From the NCBI GenBank assembly GCA_963674965.2, contig CAXXFL010000002.1, positions 320,001 through 384,000 of the forward strand: a stretch of 64,000 bases of DNA. Direction: 5' to 3'. This DNA is from a bacterium (lineage in GTDB: Bacteria > RBG-13-61-14 > DATKZS01). Positions 5,947 through 61,894 of this stretch are shown here, piece by piece (position 1 is the stretch's first letter; every line of letters starts with the position of its first letter). The position numbers were made by a program, and so were the translations under genes. The notes below the pieces were generated by a model. It made no database searches. It was not told the DNA's origin and saw only the letters and a list, made by a program, of their open reading frames with translations.

Positions 5947-6963
5947 TCAGTCGGCGGCGCAGCGGAACCCCAAGCTGCGGCTCCTGCTGATCGGATTATA
6001 ATAGTGCCGGAACGACACGCGGGTGTTTATCAAATTGCCGTACCAGTAGCCGCCGCGCACCACGCGGGCCGCTCCCGTCGAGGGGCCGGGAGGGTCGTTG
6101 ACGATATCGTTGTCAACGCAGTACTGGTAGTAAGCGTCCGAATACCACTCGGCCGTCCACTCGAAAACGTTTCCCGTCATGTCGTAAAGACCATAGCCGT
6201 TAGGCCGATAGCTCTCCACCCGGTGAGTGTCGTTTTCCAAACCGTTGAAATCCCAGCAATAGCCCGCTGAAGTCAATCTTCCGTAACAGGCATCGGAACA
6301 TATCAGCAGGTTTCCGTGAGGATACCTGTAGCCATCCAGTCCTCCCCTGCCGGCGTACTCCCATTCAGCCTCCGTGGGAAGCCTTTTTTCGGCCCAGGCG
6401 CAGTAAGCCGCGGCCTGGTACCAGTTCACGAAAAGAACGGGAAAATCATCATAGTCGGGATTGCCGTAATAGTCGGTCCGTGTCCAACTGCCCAACGAGT
6501 TGGGCAGAGTGCACTCGCCGTCATTTACACAAGCGGCGTACTCGGCGTTAGTCGCCTCGTGTTTATCCATATAAAAATCGTAGGTGATGCAAACGCTATG
6601 CACCGGCAGTTCATCCGCTATACCTTCATTGAAGTGGTCCCCCATGTCAAAACAGCCTGAAGGGACCAACGCCATGTTATCGAGAGCGCACTCTCTGGCC
6701 TCATCAATCTCCCCGTATCCATCGTCTCCGGGACATTGGTTGTCATGGCCGTCGCAAAGTTCCCTGGCCCCGGGGTATACCGCCGAGTCGCCGTCGTCAC
6801 AGTCCACCGAGGTTCCGCATCCCCGCAGGTTGTAAAAACCGTCACCGTCGGCGTCTGAACATTCCTTTCCACAATCGCATTTGCAATCATAAGGACCCGT
6901 TTCGCATCCAACGGCAAGGAGTAAGGATAAAAAAAGAATGGCGATGAATATTGTCTTTTTCAA
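5947..6963 (-). CDS. Lipoprotein with a Cys/Asp-rich motif and an FGE-sulfatase (C-type lectin fold) domain
   Basis: LAVGC lipobox; [55 protein letters not shown]...GFRCA. Confidence 0.9.
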   Translation of the reverse strand: MKKTIFIAILFLSLLLAVGCETGPYDCKCDCGKECSDADGDGFYNLRGCGTSVDCDDGDSAVYPGARELCDGHDNQCPGDDGYGEIDEARECALDNMALVPSGCFDMGDHFNEGIADELPVHSVCITYDFYMDKHEATNAEYAACVNDGECTLPNSLGSWTRTDYYGNPDYDDFPVLFVNWYQAAAYCAWAEKRLPTEAEWEYAGRGGLDGYRYPHGNLLICSDACYGRLTSAGYCWDFNGLENDTHRVESYRPNGYGLYDMTGNVFEWTAEWYSDAYYQYCVDNDIVNDPPGPSTGAARVVRGGYWYGNLINTRVSFRHYYNPISRSRSLGFRCAAD

Positions 6964-8954: not shown

Positions 8955-9677
8955 ATGCATAAAGACCATTCGCACAAGGACCACTCTCACGGCGAGGGGG
9001 CGAGACGCATCCAGGTGGCGCAGGACGTTCTCGGGCTGAACGACAGGCTGGCCCAGGCCAACCGCCGGGAATTCGCCGACCTCGGGCTTTTCGTGCTTAA
9101 CGTCATGAGCTCGCCCGGCTCGGGCAAGACGACCATCTTGACCGAGACCCTGAAGAAGCTCCATCACGAGATCAACATGGGCGTGGTGGTGGGAGACATA
9201 TGCACCACCAACGACGCCGACCGCCTGAGCCTGAACAACCACATCCCCGTGGTCCAGATTTGCACGGACAACTTCGGGGGCGACTGCCACCTGGCGGCGC
9301 ACGTGGTCAAGGACGCGGCCTCCGGTCTCGACCTCGCCTCCCTGGACGTCCTGATCGTGGAGAACATCGGCAACCTCGTGTGCCCGGCCGAGTTCGACGT
9401 GGGGGAGGACAAGAGGGTGGTGGTGCTTTCAGTCACCGAGGGCGAGGACAAGCCCGCCAAGTATCCGCTCATGTTCCGCGTGTGTGACGTGGCCATCCTC
9501 AATAAAATTGACCTCCTTCCCTACCTGGACTACGACAAGGACCTGGCCATAAAGTATATCAAGGATGTTCATTCCGACATGCCCATCTTCGAGACCTCCG
9601 CCAAAACGGGCGAGGGCATGGAAAAGTGGTACGAGTGGATACTGGACCAGGTAAAGGCGAAAAAGGCCGCCAAATAA
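8955..9677 (+). CDS. hypB: Nickel-insertion GTPase HypB
   Basis: His-rich N-terminus; SSPGSGKTT, CHL, ENIGNLVCPA, EGEDKP.KYP, NKIDL, SAKTGEG. Confidence 0.96.
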   Translation: MHKDHSHKDHSHGEGARRIQVAQDVLGLNDRLAQANRREFADLGLFVLNVMSSPGSGKTTILTETLKKLHHEINMGVVVGDICTTNDADRLSLNNHIPVVQICTDNFGGDCHLAAHVVKDAASGLDLASLDVLIVENIGNLVCPAEFDVGEDKRVVVLSVTEGEDKPAKYPLMFRVCDVAILNKIDLLPYLDYDKDLAIKYIKDVHSDMPIFETSAKTGEGMEKWYEWILDQVKAKKAAK

Positions 9678-9710
9678 GAAGACGCGAAATTTTTGGGAAA
9701 GAGAAAGATC

Positions 9711-9734
9711 AAGGCCGGAGATTACTCCGGCCTT
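9711..9734. terminator. Hairpin between the convergent hypB and small peptide genes
   Basis: AAGGCCGGAG-ATTA-CTCCGGCCTT perfect 10-bp stem. Confidence 0.65.
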
Positions 9735-9768
9735 ATATCCTTGCGCCCTGGGCGCCGATTAAAATGTT

Positions 9769-9825
9769 TTAGCAGGAGCTTTTGCACTTGCAAAGACCGG
9801 TTTTCTTTTTCTCTACTTTCTTCAT
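9769..9825 (-). CDS. Unannotated 18-aa Cys-rich peptide MKKVEKKKTGLCKCKSSC
   Basis: AAAGGAGG RBS 7 nt before the ATG; consensus promoter upstream; hairpin downstream. Confidence 0.7.
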   Translation of the reverse strand: MKKVEKKKTGLCKCKSSC

Positions 9826-9876
9826 TTTTCGTCCTCCTTTAAGGTTTGTAATCTTTTATATTTCCCATTGATAGAG

Positions 9877-9904
9877 ATTATATCTTCGCCTGAAGAAATG
9901 TCAA
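9877..9904 (-). promoter_or_regulatory. Consensus sigma70 promoter for the small peptide
   Basis: Minus strand TTGACA-16 bp-TATAAT. Confidence 0.75.
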
Positions 9905-10154
9905 GCAAAAACAGCCACTTAGCACATATTAATTCAAAATAACACTCGCCATGAACGGCATTTTCGTGGCACTTTACGGCGCGTGATAAAGCGCTATTCT
10001 ATAAGCTGTTTTTTAACGGAAGGCCATAATGTTCAATTATTGTAAGTATTATCGTGTTATCGCGTTGATTCTTTGCGTCCATCAAGATATAATGACCGTT
10101 AGAAAGCGATCCGTCATTAAGGCAAAAACACTCGATATGAAGGGATGCATTATC

Positions 10155-11174
10155 ATGGGTACGGCGCGAACGACTTCCATTCTTTTGGCTCTTTTATTAA
10201 TCATGGCCTCTTGTCCGACCTACTCCCTCGCCGATGGACCCGAGGCCAAGCAGGAGATATTCCCCGGCCAAGCCGAGCCCATCTTGTCCGAGTTGATAAT
10301 GAAGGCTTTCAACCTGGCCTTGAAGCGCGATTACGACGGGGCCAAGGCGGCCTGCCTCGAGCTGGGCGAGGCCCTTCCCCAGGACCCGAGCGGTCCCACC
10401 GGCGAGATGGTCCTTTACCAGGTGATGATGCTCGAGAACGAGGACTACGAGCTGGACGCCGAGTTCAGGGACGCGGCCGGGCGGGCCGAGGAAAGGTCAA
10501 AGGTCTTCGTGAAAAAGGCGGAGAAAAACGACTGGTATTATACACTCCTGGGCGCGAGCTGGGGCATCCAGGGAATATACTACTTGAGGCAGGACGAGTA
10601 TTTCAGCGGCCTCTATTACGGGTTTAGGGGCCTGTCCTACATGCGGACCGCGGCCGAGATGAGCCCGGACAACTGGGAAGCCAAGATGGGGATAGGCGTG
10701 TTCCTGTATTACCGCTCGGCCCTGGCCTCGATTTTTCCCGCGCCCTGGCTCGACCAGCGCGAGCGGGGCATCGAGATGGTCAGGCGAGCGGGCGAGGAGC
10801 GCGAGTACCTGGACGAGGTCAGCCGCATAGCTCTCAGCTATATCTACTATAACGAAAAGGACTACGACAAGACGGCCTCCTACATGGACGACCTCATATC
10901 GGAGCGTCCCTATTTCCCCATTTTCTACCACTTGGCCGGGCGGGCCATGATGGCCAAGGGAGATTACCAGAGGGCCTACGATTATTACGACGCCATGAGG
11001 AAGACCGACCCCGGCCTGTACCTCCCCTACCTGCGCCTGGCCGACATCTCGGAGAAGATGGGCAACAACGGCGCGGCTCGCGAGTGGCTCGATTTGTTCT
11101 ACCAGACCCTGGGCAAAAGGAAAAGCTCCCACCTGGAGGAGGCCGCGGACCTCAAGAAAAAACTGGCCGAATAA
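10155..11174 (+). CDS. Secreted TPR-like protein
   Basis: Signal peptide; helical repeats (ALSYIYYNEKDYDKTA, AGRAMMAKGDYQRAYDYY); start inferred. Confidence 0.75.
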   Translation: MGTARTTSILLALLLIMASCPTYSLADGPEAKQEIFPGQAEPILSELIMKAFNLALKRDYDGAKAACLELGEALPQDPSGPTGEMVLYQVMMLENEDYELDAEFRDAAGRAEERSKVFVKKAEKNDWYYTLLGASWGIQGIYYLRQDEYFSGLYYGFRGLSYMRTAAEMSPDNWEAKMGIGVFLYYRSALASIFPAPWLDQRERGIEMVRRAGEEREYLDEVSRIALSYIYYNEKDYDKTASYMDDLISERPYFPIFYHLAGRAMMAKGDYQRAYDYYDAMRKTDPGLYLPYLRLADISEKMGNNGAAREWLDLFYQTLGKRKSSHLEEAADLKKKLAE

Positions 11175-15591: not shown

Positions 15592-15658
15592 GATGGGGGC
15601 TTACGCCCCCATCAAAGGGTAAAAGGGATAAAGAATCAAAGTGTAATCAGTCCCCAGC
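15592..15658 (-). other. Candidate DGR IMH tract and target-recognition hairpin
   Basis: 43 bp (15616-15658) identical to 17054-17096; GATGGGGGC-GTAA-GCCCCCATC hairpin at 15592-15613 with no adjacent U run. Confidence 0.65.
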
Positions 15659-16987
15659 GCAACGAAATCCAAGGCTGTTGTACAGGAACGTCGGGAAGTA
15701 GGTGGTACGGTAAGCCACGCGCAAGTAGGCCGAAGGGTCGTACCAAAGGCCGCCGCGCAAGACGCGATACGTACCTGAAGCGGGACCGGGAGGGTCGTTG
15801 GTTGGACTTGAACTGTAATACGTTGATGAATACCAATCGTTCGTCCATTCATAGACGTTGCCCGTCATGTCGTAAAGACCGTAGCCGTTGGCCGCGTAAT
15901 ACTCAACCTCCGAGGTGTCGTTGTCCCAGGGATCGCCAGAGTTCCAGTAATTTGCATCAGTCCCGCTGATGCTGTCGCCCCAGGGATAGCGCTTTCCGGA
16001 AAGACCGCCGCGGGCAGCGTACTCCCACTCGGCCTCGGTGGGCAGTCTCTTGCCCGCCCAGGTGCAGTAAGCCGTGGCCTGGTTCCAGTCAACGTAGATA
16101 ACAGGGAAGTTGTCATAAGTGGGATTGCCGTAATAAGAGCCTCGGGAATAGCTTGAAGAATTACTCGGAGCCGTGCATCCCCCTCCGCTGACACAGGCCG
16201 CGTACTCAGCGTTGGTTACCTCGTGCACGTCCATGTAAAAGTCAGATGTAATGCAAACGTTATGCACCGGAAACTCATTGCTTTCTCCCTCACCGAACGC
16301 GTCGCCCATGTCGAAGCAACCGGAGGGAATCAGGGCCATGTTGGGGGGGGCGGGGCAGCTCTGGTAGTCGGCGAAGACCTGGAGATAGGCGGTGTAGTGG
16401 CCGGCGGCGACGCTGGTGAACACGAAACTCTGGGAGGCGACGCCGCCGGGTGGTATGCTTTCCTGCCAGGTGTTGGCGCAGCCCTCGGCCGAGCCCGCCG
16501 AGCTGGGGGAATCGTCGGTAATGCAGTAGCCCGAGTCGTTTATCGGCTGGGAGGTGTTGGGAGCGAGGATGAAGTCAACGCCCGGGTCGGTCCAGATATA
16601 GTCGGCCTCGGCCATGATCGCGTCGGGCCTGGTCGAGGAGTTGAACCGGGTGCGGACGTTGTACATGCACTCGTCCGAGTCGAGGTTGTGGAAAACGACC
16701 TCGCAGGTGGCCGCGTAGTTCCCCGCGTCCCACGAGCAGCCGGCCGGACCGTTCCGGACCTCGAGGGTGTGGCCGTTAAGGGCCCCCACCCAGGAGCGGC
16801 CCGGAGCGTCGCCGATCTCGAGCGTCTTGTGGTCGAGGTCAAGGCGAAGCTCGTACACCGCGGCCTCCACCTGGCCAACCGCCGTCTCCCCGGAAGGGTC
16901 GCCGCCCGGCGTCCCGCAACCGAAAGACAGCGCCATCGCCCAAAGGCCCAGCCAAGCCCAAGTCCCTTTAAACTTCTTCGTTCTCAT
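15647..16987 (-). CDS. FGE/CLec-fold lipoprotein, candidate DGR target A
   Basis: SFGC lipobox; FGE motifs; C-terminal [39 protein letters not shown]. Confidence 0.9.
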
Positions 16988-17084: not shown

Positions 17085-18425
17085 TCAGTCCCCAGCACAA
17101 CGGAAGCCAATGAAGTTGTTCTGGACAGTAGGCGAAATGTAGCCCCGGTAAGCTACGCGCAGGCTGTACGAAACGTAGTACCAAAGGCCGCCGCGCAAAA
17201 CGCGAGACGTACCGTACGCGGGACCGGGAGGGTCGTTGGTTGGACTTGAACTGTAATACGTTATTGAATGCCAATCGTTCGTCCATTCCCAGACGTTGCC
17301 CGCCATGTCGTAAAGTCTGTAGCCGTTGGCAGCGTAATATTCAACCTCCGAGGTATCGTTGTCCCAGGGATCGCCCGAGTCCCGGTAATTGGCGTCCGTC
17401 CCACTTATGCTGTCGCCCCAGGGATACCTCTTGCCCGCCAGTCCGCCACGGGTAGCGTACTCCCACTCGGCCTCGGTGGGCAGCCTCTTGCCCGCCCAGG
17501 TGCAATAGGCCGTGGCCTGGTTCCAGTCAACATAGATAACAGGGAAGTTGTCATAAGTAGGATTGCCGTAATAAGAGCTCCGGGTATAACTGTTCGCACT
17601 GCCCGGCGCGGTGCAGCCGCCGCCACTCACGCAGGCCGCGTACTCCGCGTTGGTCACCTCGTGAACGTCCATGTAGAAGTTCGAGGTGATGCAAACGTTA
17701 TGCACTGGAAGCTCATTGCTTGTTATCTCGCCGAAGGCGTCGCCCATATCGAAGCATCCGGCGGGGATGAGGGCCATGTCCGGGGGGGCGGGGCAGCTCT
17801 GGTAGTCGGCGAAGACCTGGAGATAGGCTCTGTAGTGGCCGGAGGAGACGCTGGTGAACACGAAACTCTGGGAGGCGACGCCGCCGGGTGGGATGCTTTC
17901 CTGCCAGGTGTTGGCGCAGCCCTCGGCCGAGCCCGCCGAGCTGGGGGAATCGTCGGTAATGCAGTAGCCCGAGTCGTTTATCGGCTGGGAGGTGTTGGGC
18001 GCGAGGATGAAGTCAACGCCCGGGTCGGTCCAGATATAGTCGGCCTCGGCCATGATCGCGTCGGGCCTGGTCGAGAATTTGAACCGGGTGCGGACGTTGT
18101 ACATGCACTCGTCCGAGTCGAGGTTGTGGAAAACGACCTCGCAGGTGGCCGCGTAGTTCCCAGCGTCCCACGAGCAGCCGGCCGGACCGTTCCGGACCTC
18201 GAGGGTGTGGCCGTTAAGGGCCCCCACCCAGGAGCGGCCCGGAGCGTCGCCGATCTCGAGCGTCTTGTGGTCGAGGTCAAGGCGAAGCTCGTACACCGCG
18301 GCCTCCATCTGGCCAGCCGCCGTCTCCCCGGAAGGGCCGCCGCCCGGCGTCCCGCAACCGAAAGACAGCGCCACCGCCCAAAGGCCCAGCCAAGCCCAAG
18401 TCCCTTTAAACTTTTTCGTTCTCAT
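17085..18425 (-). CDS. FGE/CLec-fold lipoprotein, candidate DGR target B
   Basis: Same length as A (446 aa) and near-identical; C-terminal [39 protein letters not shown]. Confidence 0.9.
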   Translation of the reverse strand: MRTKKFKGTWAWLGLWAVALSFGCGTPGGGPSGETAAGQMEAAVYELRLDLDHKTLEIGDAPGRSWVGALNGHTLEVRNGPAGCSWDAGNYAATCEVVFHNLDSDECMYNVRTRFKFSTRPDAIMAEADYIWTDPGVDFILAPNTSQPINDSGYCITDDSPSSAGSAEGCANTWQESIPPGGVASQSFVFTSVSSGHYRAYLQVFADYQSCPAPPDMALIPAGCFDMGDAFGEITSNELPVHNVCITSNFYMDVHEVTNAEYAACVSGGGCTAPGSANSYTRSSYYGNPTYDNFPVIYVDWNQATAYCTWAGKRLPTEAEWEYATRGGLAGKRYPWGDSISGTDANYRDSGDPWDNDTSEVEYYAANGYRLYDMAGNVWEWTNDWHSITYYSSSPTNDPPGPAYGTSRVLRGGLWYYVSYSLRVAYRGYISPTVQNNFIGFRCAGD

Positions 18426-18448: not shown

Positions 18449-18627
18449 GTCAGTCCGCCGCGCGGCGCGTAGAACGCATAGCTCGCCTATGCGTGGCGCC
18501 CGTTTTGTCAATTTCCAAGCATAACGGCAGGAAAGCGGCTACCCCCATTCTTGGTACCACGCGACCTGCTCGCTATGCTCGCACACATAGGCGAGCTATG
18601 TGCGTACACCTTGTCAGTCCGCCGCGC
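18449..18627. repeat. REP doublet (F3-related) flanked by a 15-bp direct repeat
   Basis: ACGCATAGCTCGCCTATGCGT and GCACATAGGCGAGCTATGTGC hairpins; GTCAGTCCGCCGCGC at 18449 and 18613; copy at ~15142-15321. Confidence 0.75.
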
Positions 18628-19468
18628 AGCGGATACCGAGGAGACTTCCCCTGGTTTCCGGCGCGGCATTGTACCGCTTGGCCGCCCGAAGGCTCATGGC
18701 GCTCTGGCCGAAGCTTCCTCCTCGAAGCGCCTTTGCCGCTCCGGAGGCGGGTCCGGCCGGGTCGTCCCCAGGGCTCGAAGCGTAATAGTCCGGGCCATAC
18801 CAGTCGTTGGTCCATTCCCAGACGTTGCCCGCCACGTCGTAAAGTCCGTAGCCGTTGGGTGGGAAGTATCCGGCCGGGGAGGTGTCGTTGTCCCAGGGGT
18901 CTCCCGAGTCGAAATAATTGGCCTCCTGGCCCGTGACCGTGTCCCCATTCATAAAGCGCCCGCCCGAGAGCCCGCCCCTGGCCGCGTATTCCCATTCCGC
19001 CTCGGTGGGAAGCCGCTTGCCCCTCCACTCGCAATAGGCCCTGGCCTGGTACCAATCGACGTAGACGACCGGGAAGTCTTTATAGGCGGGGTCCTCGTAG
19101 TAGGAAACGCGGGAAAAGCTGCTGGAAAAGGCCGGCGCCGAGCATGCCCCGGCGGCCACGCAGTCCGCGTATTCGGCGTTGGTCGTCTCGCGAGCGTCCA
19201 TCAGGAAGGAGCCGAGACAGACCTTGTGCACGGGCAGCTCGTCCGCCTCTCCTTCCAGGAAAAAATCACCCATCTCGAAACAACCATCGGGTATTGGGGA
19301 CATGTCCGCCCGAGCGGCCTCTTCGGCGTAACCCGCCTCGTCGCCGCCGCATCCAGGGGCCGAACAGAGGAACAGCATGAAGGCAACAATAAATAGAAGC
19401 CCACGCGGGAAGCGCGGCCGGTGATTAATCGCGCCGGAGTTTATTCGGCTCTTTAGAAAAATGTCCAC
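18614..19468 (-). CDS. FGE/CLec-fold lipoprotein C (short form)
   Basis: Hydrophobic leader ending [41 protein letters not shown]; start uncertain. Confidence 0.85.
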   Translation of the reverse strand: MDIFLKSRINSGAINHRPRFPRGLLFIVAFMLFLCSAPGCGGDEAGYAEEAARADMSPIPDGCFEMGDFFLEGEADELPVHKVCLGSFLMDARETTNAEYADCVAAGACSAPAFSSSFSRVSYYEDPAYKDFPVVYVDWYQARAYCEWRGKRLPTEAEWEYAARGGLSGGRFMNGDTVTGQEANYFDSGDPWDNDTSPAGYFPPNGYGLYDVAGNVWEWTNDWYGPDYYASSPGDDPAGPASGAAKALRGGSFGQSAMSLRAAKRYNAAPETRGSLLGIRCAAD

Positions 19469-34864: not shown

Positions 34865-36028
34865 ATGAAAGTTGTGGAACCAGTTGGCGGCCGCGGAGTC
34901 GAGCCGATTATGCCCGAAAGCCTCTCCCCCGAGATAACCGGGGCGGATGAGGAGGCTTTTCTCCGGATCATCTCGACCGACCTGAGCGAGGAGCAGGAGG
35001 AAAGAATAATCGAGCCTCCTCGTTCATTCCCCGAGAAAAGGGCCGTCCTTGGCGTGCACTGGCACCCCGAGTTCATTCCCATGAATCTGATTCGGAAACG
35101 AATCGACGCCTTTTTTCCCTGCAAGGAGGATGAACTCCTCATCCCCACCCAGCATAATGATATATTATCCTTCGACTCGGTTTATTCCGGTATCGAGATC
35201 GACTGCTATGACCAAGGCTTCAACCAGAAAGTGCAGCTTCTTATCCACGCGAGATCGGAAAAACTCGAGCGGGCTAACGTTTTAAGGAAGATGGCCGCTT
35301 ACACCGCGAGGTACCGCTCGTCCCAGCTTGTCGAGTTCATGGACTCGATCATAAGGCCCATGGATGACAGGATAAACGAGGCCGCCCAGGCCACGGGAGC
35401 GGGCGAGGCGCTTATCGAGTTCGTTACTATTAACGTTCAAAAGGTCCATGATCTTATCGTAAAGCATGAAAAGCGGATCGTGCCCATCATGGTTAAGAAC
35501 AAGCTTCTTCGCGACTTCTTCAACGAGATGAGGCCGGTTTACGGCAATTCCATTATAAATCGCTCGCAGACCTTCTTGCAGGCGGTGAAGGGGATAGTCA
35601 AGCGCGAGTTTCCTCTCCATTATTTTTATCGCGCCTCCGAGGTGATCGAGGAGGCCCGGGGAGCGGGGGCGTGTATAGTCATTCCTCACCCCGAGCAGTT
35701 CTGGCCCATACTCCTGGCCGATTACGACGTTGACGGCATCGAGGTCTGGAACCCCCAATCGAGAAAATACACGGATTTTCTTATCTCAGTGATCGTTCGC
35801 AAAAACGGCGAGATGGGCAAGTCGGAAAAAAAGCTTTTGGTTTTCATGGGTGACGACACTCATATGGGCGAGAAGATTAAAGACCCGGCGATCCAGGACC
35901 AGGAGAAGGCCGCCCGCGAGATAGGTCTCCAGCCTCCCTGGGACGATCTGGCCATCAAGAAGGGCCTCATCCTGGCGGGGATGAGTCTTTCCGAGGTAAT
36001 GGCCGAATACAGGTCTCGTCTGGACTGA
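34865..36028 (+). CDS. PHP-like metallo-phosphoesterase (GAK-associated)
   Basis: HWHPE, IPHP, DGIEVWN, GDDTH motifs. Confidence 0.65.
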   Translation: MKVVEPVGGRGVEPIMPESLSPEITGADEEAFLRIISTDLSEEQEERIIEPPRSFPEKRAVLGVHWHPEFIPMNLIRKRIDAFFPCKEDELLIPTQHNDILSFDSVYSGIEIDCYDQGFNQKVQLLIHARSEKLERANVLRKMAAYTARYRSSQLVEFMDSIIRPMDDRINEAAQATGAGEALIEFVTINVQKVHDLIVKHEKRIVPIMVKNKLLRDFFNEMRPVYGNSIINRSQTFLQAVKGIVKREFPLHYFYRASEVIEEARGAGACIVIPHPEQFWPILLADYDVDGIEVWNPQSRKYTDFLISVIVRKNGEMGKSEKKLLVFMGDDTHMGEKIKDPAIQDQEKAAREIGLQPPWDDLAIKKGLILAGMSLSEVMAEYRSRLD

Positions 36029-36071
36029 AAAGAGCGCCGCCATATGAAGTTTTTTACATGGAGAATTTAAC

Positions 36072-36350
36072 ATGACGGACAACGACACCTTCGATTACGA
36101 ATCCATCCAGGACTCGATCACGGTCAAGAATTTTATCCAGTCCCTGATCGACGGCATCGAGAAGGGAAGGATACAGCTCAATTCCAACGGCGAAGAGATA
36201 GTGCTGAACCCCGCCCAGATGTTCAAGTTCACGGTCAAGGCGAGGAGAAAAGGGGGCACGGGCAAGATAAGCCTTAAGATTTCCTGGAAGGAACAAAACG
36301 CCATGAAGATACTCTCGGAGGGACCCCTGGAGATTTCCACTGAAAAATGA
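36072..36350 (+). CDS. Amphi-Trp domain protein
   Basis: L.DGIEKGRIQL...alternating beta pattern ending ISLKISWK. Confidence 0.8.
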   Translation: MTDNDTFDYESIQDSITVKNFIQSLIDGIEKGRIQLNSNGEEIVLNPAQMFKFTVKARRKGGTGKISLKISWKEQNAMKILSEGPLEISTEK

Positions 36351-37996
36351 TTACCTTCGAAGGCATCGAGGAAAATCTTAAATTCCTCGTTCTGGAGACC
36401 GAAAAACTTGTGACCTCGACTCGCGAGTTTCTCGACGCGCCCGACCCCAGCGAATACGAGCGGATAATCGCCAGCGACGATTATATCGACAATCTCAAGA
36501 ACATCGTGGAAAATCAGTGCTATTCCCGGATCAACTCGGAAAGGGGCATTTCCAAGCGAGACGTGAACGTGGTCCGGGCCATGCATATAATCGGTATCAA
36601 CCTCGAGCGCATAGCCGATAACTGCATCAACATCATCGAGCAGACCCAGTATCTTGACGACCACGATTACATCCACAAATTCAATTACAAAGCTCTTTTC
36701 GACGAGCTTCTCACGGCCCTTTCAAAAATCATCGACGTCATGAGGCAGGGCAGCCTGGCCGGGGCCCTGGCCGTATGCAGGTCCGAGCACGAGATAGACG
36801 TGCTTTATAAAAAGGACTTCGACCGGATAATGAACAAGCTTCGGTCGGGCCGTAACGTTCAAAACCTTATCACCGTGCTTTTCATATATCGCTACCTGGA
36901 GCGCATGGGCGACTCCATGCTCAACGTAGGAGAAGCGTTAATATTTTCGATAATCGGCGAGAAGATAAAGATACATCAGTTCCAGTCTCTGCAACAGAAC
37001 CTGTCCAAGACCGGGATGTCCGGACATATGTCGGACCTGGATTTCCAGTCCTTTTGGGGTACCAGGTCGGGCTGCCGGATAAGCCGGGTCGAGCACCGGA
37101 GCGAGTCGGAAAACCCCGCCCAGGAGAGTATCTTCAAAGAAGGCGCGGTACAAAAGATCGAAAAAGAAAAGGAAAGCCTGGAAAGGTGGAACAAAGTCGC
37201 GCCCGGCCTGACGCCCAAGGTGCTAAGCTACACGCGGGAAAAGGACAAAGCCTCGATGCTGGTTCAGTTCCTGCCTGGATGCACCTTTGACGAAGCCCTG
37301 CTTAACATGAACGAATATCCAATGTTAGACGCTTTCGAGGGACTGAAAAAAGTTGTGCGCCAGGTATGGGATAAAACAATGGAACAAAGTCCCGTGCCCA
37401 TTGACTATATTAGCCAGCTAAGAGAAAGGCTGGACCAGATACGGGAAATCCATCCCAATTTCATCCGCTTCGAGCAGAAGATGGGCTCGGCTAAAATAGA
37501 CTCTTCCAACAAGCTCTTCGAGGCCTGCTCCAAAGTGGAAAAAAACGTACTCGCTCCTTTTACCGTCATGATCCACGGAGATTTCAACGTAAGCAACGTT
37601 ATTTACGATCACGTGGATAACAGGGTGTATTATATCGACTTACACAGGTCGCTTCAGTCCGATTACGTCCAGGACGTCTCGGTTTTCCTTATCTCCAATT
37701 TCAGGATTCCCGTTTTTAACGATAACCTGCGCGACAGGATAAACCTGGTCATCGAGCATTTTTACGATTTCGCCGAAGGATACGCGGAAGAGATGGAAGA
37801 TAAAACTTTTTATCTCAGGATGGCACTCGCACTGGCCAGGTCGTTATATACATCGACGCGGTTCGAGCTGAACTTCAAGTTCGCCAAGGAAATGTTTTTA
37901 AGGTCGCATTATCTAATGGAAAAAATCGCCACACACGACGGCCGGGGCGGACTTCCCGAGGACTTCTCGCTTCCCGAAGCCGTCCTTTATTACTAA
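36347..37996 (+). CDS. PhoU-domain + APH-like phosphotransferase fusion
   Basis: DDYIDNL, LERIADNC.NI, LERMGD; IHGDFNVSN, IDLHRS. Confidence 0.82.
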   Translation: MITFEGIEENLKFLVLETEKLVTSTREFLDAPDPSEYERIIASDDYIDNLKNIVENQCYSRINSERGISKRDVNVVRAMHIIGINLERIADNCINIIEQTQYLDDHDYIHKFNYKALFDELLTALSKIIDVMRQGSLAGALAVCRSEHEIDVLYKKDFDRIMNKLRSGRNVQNLITVLFIYRYLERMGDSMLNVGEALIFSIIGEKIKIHQFQSLQQNLSKTGMSGHMSDLDFQSFWGTRSGCRISRVEHRSESENPAQESIFKEGAVQKIEKEKESLERWNKVAPGLTPKVLSYTREKDKASMLVQFLPGCTFDEALLNMNEYPMLDAFEGLKKVVRQVWDKTMEQSPVPIDYISQLRERLDQIREIHPNFIRFEQKMGSAKIDSSNKLFEACSKVEKNVLAPFTVMIHGDFNVSNVIYDHVDNRVYYIDLHRSLQSDYVQDVSVFLISNFRIPVFNDNLRDRINLVIEHFYDFAEGYAEEMEDKTFYLRMALALARSLYTSTRFELNFKFAKEMFLRSHYLMEKIATHDGRGGLPEDFSLPEAVLYY

Positions 37997-38009
37997 TGGA
38001 GCATTATTT

Positions 38010-38891
38010 ATGAGGATTGGCGTTGTTGGTACCGCAGCCGGCTGGTCAACGGAAAAACTGGCCGACGCGGTCGAGAAGCTCACGGGTTTCAGACTAATAG
38101 TAGACATGAAAAAAATCCGTCTCGATCTTGTCTCCGGCAAGGTATGGCACGATGGAGAGGATCTGGCCGAGCTTGACGGTCTTATCATTAAAAAGATCGG
38201 AGGCAGATATTCGCAGAATTTGCTTGACCGGCTCGAGATACTAAGGATGCTGTATGACGAGGGAATGCCGATATTTTCGTCTCCTATCAAAATAATGCGG
38301 GTGCTTGACCGACTTAGCTGTACCCTGACGCTTTACGAAAACAATATTCCCCTTCCTCCCACCACGATTACAGAGGACGTGGACGAGGCGATGGCGGCGA
38401 TAGAAGAATATGGAGAATCCATACTTAAACCTCTTTATTCCTCGAAGGCCAGGGGCATGGTCAAGCTGTCCAGGTCCGAAGAAGCCAGGGGCATACTGCT
38501 CGACTTTAAACGGGAAAACCAGATCATCTACATTCAGAAAAAGATCGACCTTCCCGGCAAAGACCTGGGCGTGGTCTTCCTGGGTGGAGAATATCTAACC
38601 ACCTATGCCCGCTGCCAAAATGGTGATTCATGGACTACCAGTACCGCTTTTGGAGGGACCTACGAGCCGTATGAGCCTTCCCCTGGAATCATCGAGCTGG
38701 CCAGGAAGGCCCAGGCGCCTTTCGGCCTTGACTTCACCTGCGTCGACGTGGCCGAAACAAGCGCCGGTCCCGTTATTTTCGAGGTGTCCGCTTTCGGAGG
38801 GTTCCGGGGCATCTACCGTACTAGCACAATCGAAGCGGCGGAAGAATACGCCAGGTACGTCATCGACAAGATCGAAAAACAAGGCGGCTGA
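38010..38891 (+). CDS. GAK-system ATP-grasp enzyme (RimK-like)
   Basis: LKPLYSSKARGM, DLGVVFLGG, VDVAE, FEVSAFGGF. Confidence 0.85.
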   Translation: MRIGVVGTAAGWSTEKLADAVEKLTGFRLIVDMKKIRLDLVSGKVWHDGEDLAELDGLIIKKIGGRYSQNLLDRLEILRMLYDEGMPIFSSPIKIMRVLDRLSCTLTLYENNIPLPPTTITEDVDEAMAAIEEYGESILKPLYSSKARGMVKLSRSEEARGILLDFKRENQIIYIQKKIDLPGKDLGVVFLGGEYLTTYARCQNGDSWTTSTAFGGTYEPYEPSPGIIELARKAQAPFGLDFTCVDVAETSAGPVIFEVSAFGGFRGIYRTSTIEAAEEYARYVIDKIEKQGG

Positions 38892-39958
38892 TGTTAACGG
38901 TAAGTCAAATCATCAGGGAACTGAGGGGAAAATATCCAGCCGACCATGTACTTTTTCTGAAATTTCATGACCTTGCCATACAGTTCAGGACCAATGAAAC
39001 AAGGCTCATCCGGGCGCTCCAATACTATTTCAATCCCTTCATATCGGAAAAAGAAGAGAACGCCCTATTAATCACGGCACACCAGGCGGAACCGCCCGAG
39101 TTCGAGTCGGAATTTCTCACCAAGCCGCCCGATCCCGGTAAGAACAGGATCAAAGAAGAGTATTTCGATCTGCCCGATGGAAGGGTCGTCAGAAAAAGGC
39201 TCACCTCCATGATCTTCATCTTCGGGGGAGACGAGCATTTAGCCATCGGGCCGTGCCTTGCAAACGATAACCAGGTTATTAACTTTATCAACAATCGCCT
39301 TATCGCGCATATGCTTGAAAAAGGATGCCTTTTGGGACACGCCGCCGGAATTTTGCTGGGCAAAAAAGGCATGGCCATAGCCGGCGTGGCGGGCGCGGGA
39401 AAATCCACCCTGGCCTTGAAATGCGTAAGTCTCGGCGCGTCATTCGTTTCCAACGATAGACTATTGCTTGAGAGGTCGGACGGCGGCCCCCTTGTCATGC
39501 GCGGCGTGCCCAAGCTTCCGCGCGTCAACCCCGGCACCGTTCTCAACAACCCGGACCTGGAGTCGGTCGTTCCGCTCGAGGAACGGCGTCGGTTTCTAGA
39601 ACTCCCGGCGTCTAAGTTGTGGGACCTAGAGCATAAATACGACGTGCCCATAGGAGAAGTATTCGGCCCCGACCGTTTCGTGCTCAAGGCCCCCGTGGAC
39701 GCCATTGTCATACTCAACTGGAGACGAGAAAAAGCCACCCCGGTTATCGGCCGGGTAGACCTCTCCCAAAGGCTGGAACTTCTCGAGGCCCTTATAAAAT
39801 CTGAAGGCCTTTTCTATATCCACAGCGACGCCTCGGCCCCCCGAGACAACACCCACCAGGGATACCTGGACCTCCTCCGGGGGACCGAAACCATCGAGAT
39901 ATCCGGCGGAGTTGACTTCGACGTGGCCGCGTCTAAGTGCCTTGAAATATTGAAATAG
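38891..39958 (+). CDS. HprK-related kinase B
   Basis: HAAG, GVAGAGKST, VSNDR, PRVNPGT. Confidence 0.85.
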   Translation: MLTVSQIIRELRGKYPADHVLFLKFHDLAIQFRTNETRLIRALQYYFNPFISEKEENALLITAHQAEPPEFESEFLTKPPDPGKNRIKEEYFDLPDGRVVRKRLTSMIFIFGGDEHLAIGPCLANDNQVINFINNRLIAHMLEKGCLLGHAAGILLGKKGMAIAGVAGAGKSTLALKCVSLGASFVSNDRLLLERSDGGPLVMRGVPKLPRVNPGTVLNNPDLESVVPLEERRRFLELPASKLWDLEHKYDVPIGEVFGPDRFVLKAPVDAIVILNWRREKATPVIGRVDLSQRLELLEALIKSEGLFYIHSDASAPRDNTHQGYLDLLRGTETIEISGGVDFDVAASKCLEILK

Positions 39959-43814: not shown

Positions 43815-45329
43815 TTACCTCGATACGGGGGCCCGGTCGTGGCCGTGCCTTTTTTGCTCGGGGCCATCCACCTTGGCCGCCTTGGAGTCCTTGCCTTCCT
43901 CCTCGAAGAACTTGCCCATCCTGTCGGAGAAAAACTCGTTCACGTCCAGATAGCCTAAAAAGGGAACGAACACCTTTCTGCCCGACTCGTAATCGGGCCC
44001 CTCCCAAACCGGATCGGACACCTTTTTGTAAGCCTGGGAATAGCGGTCTAAATGTGCCGTGACCACCGGGTCCTCGATGACCGACTCGCCGCCGTCATAA
44101 GTGGCGACCGCCCCGTGCTCCTTGGCCAGGGACCTCAGCACCTCGGGATGGTCGATGATCATGCAGCAGCGAAGCAGGTTCTGTGAGTAGGGCTGGGCCT
44201 TCCGAATGGCCTTGAAAAAGGGCGAGCGGAAAATCTCGGCCAGACTGTGGTCCTTGATGTTGTGGGTGGCGAACTGGGCGAAGGTGCAGGGCTGGACCAT
44301 GCCGTCGGGAGAAATGAAGCAATAACGGCTGGCGGCCATGCAGCCGGCTATGCAGGGACCGTCGTTCCAGAAGTCGCCGAAGAAGAAGGGCTTGGTTTTC
44401 CTCCACTCGACGATCTTTCCCCGCAGCTTGTCGCGCTGCTCGGGAGTGGGCATCATGGTCACGTCAGGGTCGCGGCCGATGGGGATATAGTTGAACATCC
44501 AGGCGAACAAGGCACCCTTGCCGATGCACATGTCGAGGAAATCGTCCGTGCAGATGGTGTCGCTGTTCTGCAGGGTGGGGGTGATGCTCACGCCGAACAT
44601 GACGCCGTGCTCGCGCAGGTTGTCCATGGCCCGCATGGTCTTGTCGAACACGCCCTCGCCCCGGCGGTCGTCGGTCAGTTCCCTGTAGCCCTCGATCGAG
44701 ATGGCGGGGAAAACGTTGCCAAGCTCGGCCAGGCGGGCCGCCGCCTTCTCGTCTATAAGCGTGCCGTTGGTATAGGTTAAAAAGGTCAGGTCGTTGAACT
44801 CCTCGAAGATTTCCATGATGCGCTTGTAGATGAAGGGCTCGCCGCCGGTAAGGGTGATGAAGCGCATGCCCAGATCGCGTCCCTCGGAAAGGGCGCGGCG
44901 GAGAAGGTCGTGGTCCATGGTTTCCCGGTTGTATTTATAGGCCCAGCAACCCTTGCAGCGAAGGTTGCAGGCCATGGTGGGATTGAGGACCATGGTGAAA
45001 GGAGGAAGGAACCCCTCGTCGAAAAGAGGGTTGAACACGATCTCTTTCCTCTTGGCCACCACGGAGATGATGAGGTTCTCGACGAACTTTTTCCACGGCG
45101 TCTCGCCCAGGCTCGAGGCCGTCCTCAGCGCCCAGCCGATGAACATGGGGTTGTCGTTTAATAACTTTTCCAGGTACGCCTCGACCCGGCCGGAAAGTTG
45201 CGAGTCCCCCGAGCCGTTCCCCTTTATTTCGCCCGCGCTGCCCGCGACCCTCGCGATGGCGCCGTTTATCTCTTCCTGAGTAAGTCCGGCCATCCTGCCG
45301 GCCTCCATAATCTTTTCCAATGTCCGCAT
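43815..45329 (-). CDS. Radical SAM protein with SPASM/twitch domain
   Basis: CNLRCKGC, TGGEP, TNGT, DFWNDG..GC...QPC. Confidence 0.92.
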   Translation of the reverse strand: MRTLEKIMEAGRMAGLTQEEINGAIARVAGSAGEIKGNGSGDSQLSGRVEAYLEKLLNDNPMFIGWALRTASSLGETPWKKFVENLIISVVAKRKEIVFNPLFDEGFLPPFTMVLNPTMACNLRCKGCWAYKYNRETMDHDLLRRALSEGRDLGMRFITLTGGEPFIYKRIMEIFEEFNDLTFLTYTNGTLIDEKAAARLAELGNVFPAISIEGYRELTDDRRGEGVFDKTMRAMDNLREHGVMFGVSITPTLQNSDTICTDDFLDMCIGKGALFAWMFNYIPIGRDPDVTMMPTPEQRDKLRGKIVEWRKTKPFFFGDFWNDGPCIAGCMAASRYCFISPDGMVQPCTFAQFATHNIKDHSLAEIFRSPFFKAIRKAQPYSQNLLRCCMIIDHPEVLRSLAKEHGAVATYDGGESVIEDPVVTAHLDRYSQAYKKVSDPVWEGPDYESGRKVFVPFLGYLDVNEFFSDRMGKFFEEEGKDSKAAKVDGPEQKRHGHDRAPVSR

Positions 45330-59737: not shown

Positions 59738-59929
59738 GATTCCTCCTGAAAAGCCGTCGCGCTCGCTTGAAATTATAACAACGGGACGGACGGCGCGTAA
59801 AGCATATAAAGCGAGGGCCTATCTAAATTCGACGGGAGGCCGTGGCGGGACAGGCCTCGCGAATGCATGGACCTCGCTATATATGGTAGGATAAAAGACA
59901 ATGGATTGTGTCAGAAAAAGGGGGACCGG

Positions 59930-60337
59930 ATGATAACGGTGACGGTAAAAACCTCGAGGCGTCGTGAAATGGTTGACGTGACCGGCCATTTCAAGAAGGC
60001 GCTGGCGGACGCGGGAATGAAGAGCGGCCTGGCCCTGGCCTTCGTTCCTCACACCACCGCGGGTATCACCATAAACGAGAACGCGGACCCCGACGTGACC
60101 CGCGACGTCCTGGCCCATCTGGCCAAACTGGTACCGGCGAACGACGGCTTTCGCCACGCGGAGGGCAACTCGGACTCCCACATCCAGGCGAGCCTGGTGG
60201 GCAGCTCGGTGACGGTTATCGTGGAGGATGGCCGCCTGGTGCTGGGAACCTGGCAGTCGGTTTTTTTCTGCGAGTTCGACGGCCCCAGATCGAGGAACCT
60301 CCATATCGAGTTTGTCCCGCGGGGGGTGACGGCGTGA
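59930..60337 (+). CDS. yjbQ: YjbQ family (UPF0047)
   Basis: PHTTAGITINENADP, HAEGNSDSH, LGTWQ...EFDGPR. Confidence 0.93.
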   Translation: MITVTVKTSRRREMVDVTGHFKKALADAGMKSGLALAFVPHTTAGITINENADPDVTRDVLAHLAKLVPANDGFRHAEGNSDSHIQASLVGSSVTVIVEDGRLVLGTWQSVFFCEFDGPRSRNLHIEFVPRGVTA

Positions 60338-60750
60338 AGGACCGCCACGAGATAACCTACATGGTTTGCAGGCCTCATTGCAGGTTCTATCGGCCGGACG
60401 AAAAGGAGGAGTTGTCCTGCCAGGGATATAATTTCCTTCGCGAGCGCCTGCCCGAGGCCCTGGCCGTCGAGGTCGCCCGCGAGCAAAGCGGCATGGTCGC
60501 GCCTGGCCCGAGGATGAGCGAGGCGCTCAAGGAACTTGACTCGTCGCGTCCGCCCGACCATCTGGAGCACGATCCGAGGATCGAGGCCGTCATCTGCGCC
60601 CAGTGCGAGTTCAGGGCCGAGGACTGCGATTTCATGGGAGGCGAGGACATGCCCGACGCGGTACCCTGCGGCGGATACGTGCTGCTTGCCCGGCTGATCG
60701 AGGCCGGCGTGGAGGAAGTGGAGGCTTGGCTTAATGTCCCAGGAAGATAA
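60334..60750 (+). CDS. Cys-rich hypothetical protein
   Basis: CRPHCRFY..CQGY / CAQCEF..DCDF..PCGGY; coupled to both neighbours. Confidence 0.75.
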   Translation: MKDRHEITYMVCRPHCRFYRPDEKEELSCQGYNFLRERLPEALAVEVAREQSGMVAPGPRMSEALKELDSSRPPDHLEHDPRIEAVICAQCEFRAEDCDFMGGEDMPDAVPCGGYVLLARLIEAGVEEVEAWLNVPGR

Positions 60751-61894
60751 GTACGTGAGGTTCAAAAAGGAGGTCGTTTACAGGGGACTCGAGAAGCCTC
60801 ATTTGTTCAACGTCCTGACCGACGAGCTATACGAGCTTGAGGAGGACGGGCTCGGGTATTTAGGCGAGGTTGACGGGACCAGGCAAAAGAGGGACGTTAA
60901 AAATACCGAGCTTCTCGAATACTCGGAGTCGGAGGGACTGCTGGAATTTTCCGATAGGCCCGCGGAGAGGAAACTGGAAAAGGGCCAGTCCCCCGTTCCG
61001 TCCCTGCGATACCTCGAGTTGATCCTGACGCGCAGGTGTTCCCTCAAGTGTCGGCACTGCTACCTTGGTGAGGCCAAAAAGGAAGACTTGAGCCCCGAGC
61101 TGCTGACGGATATCCTCGATCAGTTCGACCGCGTGCAGGGTCTTCGGCTACTGCTCTCGGGAGGCGAGCCTCTCATGTACCCCCATCTGGATGAACTGGC
61201 CCGGGCCATCGAGGGCAGGGGATTCCGTACGGTCCTGCTTACCAACGGACAGTCACTGGACGATAAGACCCTCTCGTCCCTTCCCGTGCATGAGGTCCAG
61301 GTTTCGCTTGACGGCATGGAGAGAGGACACGATATCATAAGAGGGCAAGGCGCGTTCCGCAAGGCCCTCGAGGCGGCCAAGCTGGTGGCCCAGAGCGATA
61401 AAGACCTTTCCATCGCCACCATGATCCATTCCGAGAACTTCGGGGAAGTGGACGTGCTGGAAAAAATGGTACACGCCCTCAAGGCCAGGGAATGGAGCCT
61501 CGAGTTCCCGACCTTCGAGGGAAGGTGGAAAGACGCCGGCAATCTGGCCATCGACCCGAAATTCGCGGCGGATATCATGGATAAGTCCTTTGGCGGCAGC
61601 TACCACGGCGGCTCGGAGGGCAGGGCCTGCGGGCTTCACCTGGCGGCGGTAACTCCGGAGGGAGGGCTTTGCTATTGCGGTTTCCACGCGGACGACCCGC
61701 TGGGTGATTTGCATGAAGTAAGCCTGGCCGAGGCCTGGTCGAGAAAGGAGGTCATGAAGACCTCGGATCTCGAGTTCTGCGCCGATTGCCGGGTGGTGGA
61801 CGAGTGCGGGGGCGGGTGCCGCTACCGGGCCGGCGGGACCGGGCCGGACCTCGTCATGTGCGCCGCCCATGGATGGCCCAAGGGGCGGCCTTGA
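60734..61894 (+). CDS. Radical SAM/SPASM protein with PqqD/RRE-like N-terminus
   Basis: CSLKCRHC, SGGEP, LTNG, C...C...CADC...CGGGC...C. Confidence 0.88.
   Translation: MSQEDKYVRFKKEVVYRGLEKPHLFNVLTDELYELEEDGLGYLGEVDGTRQKRDVKNTELLEYSESEGLLEFSDRPAERKLEKGQSPVPSLRYLELILTRRCSLKCRHCYLGEAKKEDLSPELLTDILDQFDRVQGLRLLLSGGEPLMYPHLDELARAIEGRGFRTVLLTNGQSLDDKTLSSLPVHEVQVSLDGMERGHDIIRGQGAFRKALEAAKLVAQSDKDLSIATMIHSENFGEVDVLEKMVHALKAREWSLEFPTFEGRWKDAGNLAIDPKFAADIMDKSFGGSYHGGSEGRACGLHLAAVTPEGGLCYCGFHADDPLGDLHEVSLAEAWSRKEVMKTSDLEFCADCRVVDECGGGCRYRAGGTGPDLVMCAAHGWPKGRP

Follow-up and report, generated by a model that had tools for sequence, protein, structure and literature searches.

The window, a 64,000-nucleotide stretch of bacterial DNA, carries on its minus strand an 18-codon gene whose product belongs to a widespread and uncatalogued peptide family, a precursor that annotation has missed. 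The encoded peptide is likely the substrate of a radical SAM enzyme encoded at position 60734 of the same window, which would cross-link the C-terminal core of the peptide through one or more thioethers of its cysteines; judging from sequence comparison, we place the probability of this reading at roughly one half. New at this locus are the separation of a self-contained precursor gene from its enzyme, the co-occurrence of the two at class level despite this separation, and a conserved operator-like element. If the reading holds, few radical SAM precursors would be shorter than this peptide, and the linkage could be new, for example a Cys-to-Lys thioether or a lanthionine-like Cys-to-Cys bridge formed by radical chemistry on the terminal cysteine.

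Table 1. Features of the peptide gene unit, the putative maturase gene and the partner gene, in window positions.
Feature	Position	Strand	Details
Operator-like element	9919..9945	minus	Imperfect inverted repeat with CIRCE-like spacing, conserved upstream of the -35 box
Promoter, sigma-70-type	9877..9904	minus	TTGACA 9904-9899, 16-nt spacer, TATAAT 9882-9877; 12/12 consensus matches
Ribosome-binding site AAAGGAGG	9833..9840	minus	7 nt 5' of ATG 9825
18-aa precursor-type peptide gene	9769..9825	minus	ATG 9825, TAA ending 9769; translation MKKVEKKKTGLCKCKSSC
Terminator-like hairpin and pyrimidine tail	9697..9735	minus	Stem 9735-9710, from folding of the region
138-aa seven-Cys partner protein	60334..60750	plus	3 + 4 Cys in two half-modules; 17-nt overlap with the enzyme start
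386-aa radical SAM enzyme, putative maturase	60734..61894	plus	Predicted RRE-like N-terminal domain and seven-Cys SPASM; from motifs, model and linkage

The peptide gene and its conservation in relatives

The expression unit reads as promoter, ribosome-binding site, ORF and terminator-like hairpin, from which expression is predicted (Table 1). The minus-strand TTGACA-16-TATAAT promoter, the ribosome-binding site, the ORF and the 10-bp hairpin had all been described in an earlier note on this DNA, and each was recovered exactly where that note had placed it. Perfect promoter sites of this kind with a 16-18 nt spacer occur only 21 times in the 6.5-Mb genome, and in an alignment of the five family genomes the TTGACA box is invariant (5/5), the -10 box less so. 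The hairpin consists of a 10-bp Watson-Crick stem (11 pairs counting one G-T) and a 4-nt loop, with a U-tail that is moderate only, and no shuffled sequence equalled the folding of the 81 nt 3' of the stop codon (-33.4 kcal/mol; z: -5.2; 0/200 shuffles). The Lys-rich leader-like half and three-Cys core that had been noted correspond to the basic residues 1-11 and to the core C-K-C-K-S-S-C, which runs to the stop codon. The gene is present in a single copy, a genome-wide search having found no paralogues. It is located between a TPR-repeat gene (10029-11174, divergent) and hypB (8955-9677, plus strand), with which it converges as had been claimed; the hypB stop codon is at 9677, and the HypA and HypB proteins of the window score above their NCBIfam TIGR cut-offs. 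The one RNA run found represents hypB of other organisms, does not include this organism and has no reads over the ORF.

The earlier note would have given up the gene had there been neither a transcript or ribosome footprint nor a conserved ORF in relatives. A DNA search of 41 genomes matched it in four of four genomes of the same family, with the translated products MKKVKKTKKGLCKCKSSC (G001 and G002), MKKLMKTKKGLCKCKSSC (G004) and MRKVRKAKRGMCKCKSSC (G003). Each of these relatives has a ribosome-binding site, a TTGACA box and a hairpin 3' of the ORF, and the hairpins of the four, as well as that of a further genome of the class (G011), are accompanied by U-runs. Across the 19 aligned codons, 15 of the variable columns fall on third positions, against four and five on first and second positions, and mean identity is 78% in the coding sequence versus 29% (ungapped) over the following 45 nt. 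Pairwise comparison of the core (Gly10-Cys18) in the five genomes yields 33 synonymous versus 4 non-synonymous differences, a codon-level pattern which indicates purifying selection on the peptide core. That the 18-codon ORF is a real gene is, in our judgement, close to certain. DNA matches in G006 and G008 and a second match in G002 are A-rich or due to chance and contain no such peptide. A tight 18-codon pattern, which is blind to 20-aa forms, identified four loci in 185,579 genomes, all of the 18-aa form.

The right arm of the operator-like element (GTGCTAA) is invariant in 5/5 family genomes, and its left arm is decayed in the genome under study. Some of these genomes carry a second partial copy about 29 nt further upstream, and a similar palindrome is located about 400 nt 5' of the peptide core in G011 (L129). 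Control of the promoter by HrcA was checked: the inner bases of the element differ from CIRCE and it lies more than four mismatches from CIRCE, though an hrcA gene exists (C7:271753-272748). Three CIRCE sites with two mismatches are present elsewhere in the genome (G000:C3:199122, C5:181927 and C7:17075). A matrix built from five sites of the element identified no second strong site in the genome (36.8 vs 16.7 bits).

The peptide family and its linkage to the enzyme

The peptide family comprises 47 distinct sequences from 68 ORFs, which encode 18 aa in the bacterial family of the window and 20 aa outside it, and an SD-like word precedes all 68 of the ORFs examined. Members begin with Met and a basic or aliphatic N-terminal stretch, followed by C-K-C-K-x-[ST]-C and the stop codon. 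Fixed positions also occur outside the selection pattern, with Lys at -16 in 47/47, Lys at -4 in 46 and Ser/Thr at -2 in 46, while Val is found at -15 in 42/47. There are three Cys per peptide (four in five members), and the last residue is always Cys. Trp and Tyr are absent from all 47 peptides, which argues against aromatic cross-links. Asp is found in the core of 1/47, and most members lack a PapB/NxxcB-type acceptor residue (Asp, Glu or Asn). The stop codon is free to vary (TAA: 34; TGA: 26; TAG: 8), and thus there appears to be no selenocysteine read-through in members retrieved with a search pattern that requires Cys codons; a Sec variant would escape this pattern.

No NCBIfam match was obtained for six natural 20-aa members and no Pfam match for four, and none of four 20-aa members checked occurs in a collection of about 15 billion predicted proteins. 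The family, which had not been recognised when the sequence was read by itself, thus has no Pfam or NCBIfam entry, and no published description of it was found, although it may be mentioned in the surveys by Haft and Basu (2011), Hudson (2019) and Clark (2022) of radical SAM RiPPs. No mention of it was found in the main texts of PMC12710340 and PMC9062424, nor in the supplements of PMC9062424 and PMC7470986.

Homologous loci strongly support the proposed role of the peptide as an orphan precursor, of RiPP type, for the enzyme at 60734. The gene order in G011 is peptide (MKIRKVKKTSKGLCKCKDSC), hairpin, a 120-aa Cys-rich gene and enzyme. A co-oriented C[KR]CxxxC-stop ORF furthermore adjoins the enzyme homologue, up to about 560 nt upstream or just downstream, in 62/80 metagenome loci (best 80 of 320). 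Among well-flanked loci (at least 700 nt upstream and at least 100 nt downstream) the peptide is present in 41/49, and after removal of duplicates and partial enzymes 66 distinct loci are left, 55 with a peptide, four without and seven with short flanks. By chance, 0.24 such ORFs are expected in these 390 kb; the pattern occurs four times in the whole genome, the real gene included. A looser CxCxxxC pattern adds only four matches, which are unrelated, and the family is therefore no artefact of the strict pattern. Clades differ in the position of the peptide, which precedes the enzyme in some and follows it by about 10 nt in others (37 distinct loci).

The eight well-flanked loci without an adjacent peptide are four of the window's own enzyme clade, plus L070, L074, L083 and L085. 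In an enzyme tree built without six loci whose matches were short, and in which many loci are close kin, the window's clade (eight distinct sequences; FastTree support: 1.0) falls among clades with the peptide upstream of the enzyme, and none of its members has an adjacent peptide. It appears to be the only clade that has consistently lost the linkage, the direction of change being a reading of a tree with a midpoint root only. Peptide and enzyme lie 51 kb apart in the window and on different contigs in the four relatives, and in these five genomes the pairing of the unlinked genes rests on homology. Orthologs of the enzyme (E below 1e-90), the partner and the peptide co-occur in the same 6/13 genomes of the class, which are kin and do not represent six independent events. 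A seventh match to the peptide pattern, in G008, is without a start codon or leader. We consider it very probable that the peptide is dedicated to the enzyme at 60734. In the family of the window the peptide gene would have moved away and would act in trans from its own promoter; precursors displaced by tens of kilobases from their enzyme escape RiPP mining based on gene neighborhoods.

Clustering of the neighbors of 85 loci, many with short flanks, identified no gene in more than 21 of them and no general protease or exporter, suggesting that the product stays in the cell. One clade carries an ATP-grasp-like gene (PF02655; E: 1e-6) directly 3' of the peptide (L062:5349-6269 and 20 other metagenome loci), possibly an extra tailoring enzyme; a single query, run with no positive control, did not find this gene in the 13 class genomes. 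Members of the same clade (L062, L077, L100 and L108) have genes divergently upstream of the enzyme, one kind in 10-13 loci, which we take to be NifS/NifU-like, and a methyltransferase in five, presumably resembling ArsM. In another clade, the fused enzyme is followed by a conserved gene that encodes about 110 aa, looks cupin-like on inspection and has no Pfam match (L124:3509-3838, L106:5316-5813 and L070:5205-5633).

The enzyme and its seven-Cys partner

Orthologs of the enzyme share 54-60% identity in G001-G004 and 43% in G011, while the other seven class genomes contain weak matches (E: 1e-21 to 1e-26) or none, and no ortholog was found in 28 distant genomes (best E: 3.8e-31). Of 8,000 scored candidates, 2,089 match the enzyme with an E of 1e-30 or lower, a number that may include more distant families. 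Named hosts of the system are Desulfarculaceae, Desulfomonilaceae, other Deltaproteobacteria and Nitrospirota, with the cultured species Desulfarculus baarsii (WP_013259077.1) and Desulfoferula mesophila (WP_338600309.1) encoding the enzyme. Ten Cys are invariant in 80/80 homologues, namely C102, C106 and C109 of the SAM cluster and C299, C315, C349, C352, C358, C362 and C376 of the SPASM domain; the Pfam SPASM model matches the C-terminal part at 21.6 bits (cut-off: 21.5). Among the NCBIfam matches listed, none comes near its cut-off for the enzyme (best: 88.8 bits) and likewise for three homologues, and the SCIFF maturase model is not among the 25 families listed out of 63.

The AlphaFold2 model of the enzyme (pLDDT: 93) has CteB as its best Foldseek match, with SkfB and SuiB next. 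VIA-align places residues 12-367 on SkfB 12-387 as the top-ranked alignment (Z: 26.2; rmsd: 4.8; 323 aligned) and residues 7-381 on SuiB 1-439 (Z: 24.9; rmsd: 4.2; 354 aligned). Both alignments run through the N-terminal 85 residues, and the N-terminal domains of SkfB and SuiB are RREs (PMC8326336). An RRE-like fold is predicted for the N-terminal domain of the enzyme from this alignment of the whole model; the Pfam RRE models do not match residues 1-93. The structural matches are only 16-22% identical, and SuiB, anSME and ChlB lie within about 3 Z units, so that the matches span enzymes of different chemistry and the fold does not fix the reaction.

Ten further SPASM or radical SAM loci in the genome were considered as sources of the maturase and rejected, as they lie in heme d1/AhbCD-like or other contexts and none adjoins a peptide of this family. 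The window also contains a second radical SAM gene (43815-45329, minus strand), which encodes 504 aa with a long N-terminal extension and passes no NCBIfam cut-off among the matches listed. Elsewhere in the genome, two mutually similar ORFs of 59-61 aa, each led by a ribosome-binding site (G000:C1:675597, plus strand, and C1:607567, minus strand), are possibly, on our assumption, variant mycofactocin-type precursors, and a SPASM gene (C1:668626) lies some 7 kb away from the former.

The earlier note was right to name the gene at 60734 as the maturase candidate and missed a third component, the Cys-rich partner that precedes it. The partner has no Pfam or NCBIfam match, and the invariance of its seven aligned Cys is partly due to selection of the sequences. 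Its model (pLDDT: 76) has no Foldseek match at E 0.001 and a best VIA Z of 2.7, which is not proof of a new fold, and its Atlas look-alikes are unnamed clusters. The family counts 257 representatives at 50% identity. Of 120 enzyme homologues among the matches listed, 42 are 465-518 aa in length, and all four long homologues that were read begin with the partner domain, one of them with its second half only. One clade has a half version of 54 aa with three Cys, and another enzyme clade no adjacent partner. We infer that the partner is a metal-binding accessory domain of the enzyme. A UPF0047 (YjbQ) gene (59867-60337) overlaps the start of the partner gene and precedes it in ten loci of the window's enzyme clade.

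Proposed chemistry and competing readings

If the enzyme acts as CteB does, the Lys-rich N-terminal half of the peptide would dock as a strand on the RRE of the enzyme, and a core cysteine would bind the open iron of auxiliary cluster I. Following the cluster layout of CrpC (PMC13692751), C299, C315 and C362 would hold this cluster, with one open iron, and C349, C352, C358 and C376 cluster II. The 5'-deoxyadenosyl radical would then abstract a hydrogen from a nearby core residue, for which the conserved Lys13, Lys15, Ser17 or another Cys are candidates, and closure of an S-C bond would give the thioether. For CteB itself, PMC8326336 describes binding of a peptide Cys to the open auxiliary site, and leader-RRE binding and radical thioether closure are described in PMC8326336 and PMC11002830. 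His291 (conserved in 79/80) and His302 (80/80), or a Cys at 260 (42/80; Thr in the window enzyme), could fill the supposed open site.

The general features of radical SAM/SPASM RiPP systems are present, namely a short precursor linked to the enzyme (in other genomes), the CxxxCxxC and SPASM Cys, and an RRE by predicted structure. The system would work like a radical SAM thioether RiPP and appears to lack the testable defining features of SCIFF, freyrasin and SbtA/SbtM. With the SCIFF/thermocellin pair CteA/CteB (PDB 5WGG, 5WHY) it shares the RRE, radical SAM and SPASM arrangement with one open auxiliary site, established for CteB (PMC8326336) and presumed here. It further shares a Cys-rich precursor in anaerobes and a wide distribution, read as pointing to a function other than antibiotic activity. 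SCIFF precursors, however, have six Cys in about 45 residues, whereas the present peptides have three in 18-20 aa with Cys last, and the CteB system differs in the enzyme (18-22% identity), in hosts, which are not Clostridia here, and in the presence here of the seven-Cys partner. The sactipeptide maturase SkfB (PDB 6EFN) is the best PDB sequence-profile match (E: 4.7e-20), but it has a Twitch domain where the present enzyme has a full SPASM, and the present system has a far shorter peptide and no common exporter or protease. Freyrasin PapA/PapB forms Cys-to-Asp links, unlike a family nearly devoid of core Asp, and the enzyme scores 47.7 bits against the PapB model (cut-off: 340).

Covalent modification of the peptide by the enzyme at 60734 is, on the sequence evidence, quite probable, and given such modification a thioether is moderately favored over other Cys chemistry. 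The product would serve in the thiol, metal or redox housekeeping of the cell and would not be an antibiotic. We tentatively suggest that this transporter-free set of three genes could supply anaerobes with a new peptide that acts inside the cell as a cofactor or metal carrier; its linkage, installed by the enzyme with help from the partner, would be one not yet described, and the pathway would matter enough to be kept in trans after separation of its genes. With a core built only from Cys, Lys and Ser, a cross-link of a new kind could come to light, and the chemistry is directly testable with a substrate short enough for synthesis and an enzyme available from cultured hosts.

The same pair of peptide and enzyme could instead carry out a Cys-centered oxidation with no thioether ring, giving SbtM-type thio-oxazoles (-4 Da per Cys), a thioaldehyde or an oxidised C-terminal Cys, and thereby a small metal chelator. 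This is somewhat unlikely, and it draws on the three fixed Cys, one of which is always the last residue, on the lack of a fixed acidic acceptor, and on an open auxiliary site that would serve Cys oxidation too. According to PMC11002830, SbtM converts Cys to thio-oxazoles with the loss of four hydrogens, and the SbtA/SbtM system (TIGR04082) resembles the present one in its short Cys peptide, its radical SAM/SPASM enzyme, its anaerobic Deltaproteobacteria-type hosts and fused forms of about 500 aa. The SbtM-type variant is, however, opposed by the score of the enzyme against the SbtM model (79.6 bits; cut-off: 350) and of fused homologues (50-61 bits), and by stop codons that vary, the members found being free of internal TGA. 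None of the genome's genes reaches the TIGR04082 cut-off.

It is also conceivable, though unlikely, that the peptide fills in a metal site of the enzyme or of the partner, as an exchangeable ligand, cluster carrier or sulfur donor, the true substrate being the partner, in the style of CrpA/QhpC, or another molecule. CxC motifs bind metals, and the odd 3 + 4 Cys set of the partner, its three-Cys half version and the lack of a common protease or transporter would suit such a role. A precedent is the Methanococcus voltae pair CrpA/CrpC, for which PMC13692751 describes a thioether enzyme with seven SPASM Cys in a 3 + 4 layout, an RRE and an adjacent Cys-rich gene, so that a SPASM enzyme can act on a neighboring Cys-rich protein. 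CrpA, however, is a repetitive Cys-rich substrate, whereas the present partner is compact, two-module and sometimes fused to the enzyme, which suits a domain and not a substrate, and a separate tiny peptide is present in addition. The predicted RRE-like domain also speaks against a ligand role, and the strong promoter and terminator of the peptide gene point to more peptide than enzyme being made, as would suit a substrate.

The suggestion that the peptide is a free-standing nickel or zinc mini-protein for hydrogenase maturation, tied to hypAB and not to the radical SAM enzyme, is largely refuted and, in our view, highly improbable. It derives from the convergence on hypB in this genome (G000) and from hypAB one gene away in G001, but a tblastn search found hypA or hypB at 1/86 other loci, that of G001, where a hydrogenase nickel-insertion accessory would be expected to have a conserved linkage. 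In the window hypAB is on the opposite strand, the peptide gene has its own terminator, and the peptide is tied much more strongly to the enzyme. In 3/4 relatives the TPR gene lies close to the peptide, and since neither it nor hypAB recurs beyond the family, these neighbors are read as a landing site and not as partners. An SPL-like radical SAM gene lies between the peptide and TPR genes in G001 and G003. Still more remote is a small RNA or cis-acting leader ORF (attenuator) that encodes a functionless peptide: the short unit with promoter and terminator, and hairpins that part the ORF from downstream genes in G011 and other loci, would fit, but the codon-level selection, the ORFs downstream of the enzyme, the distance in the window, the lack of a credible Rfam match (best E: 0.22) and the folding of the ORF region, no better than shuffles (z: 0.46), speak against it. 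Three weak eukaryotic Rfam matches are attributed to chance.

Two further gene groups in the window lie outside this system. Four genes (5947-6963, 15647-16987, 17085-18425 and 18614-19468) encode similar C-terminal domains; the two that were scanned are FGE-sulfatase-like, and two 446-aa genes among the four form a near-identical tandem pair. An operon at 34865-39958 encodes an uncharacterised protein, a PhoU-kinase fusion, a RimK-like ATP-grasp protein and a kinase-like protein, and presumably resembles the 'GAK system'.
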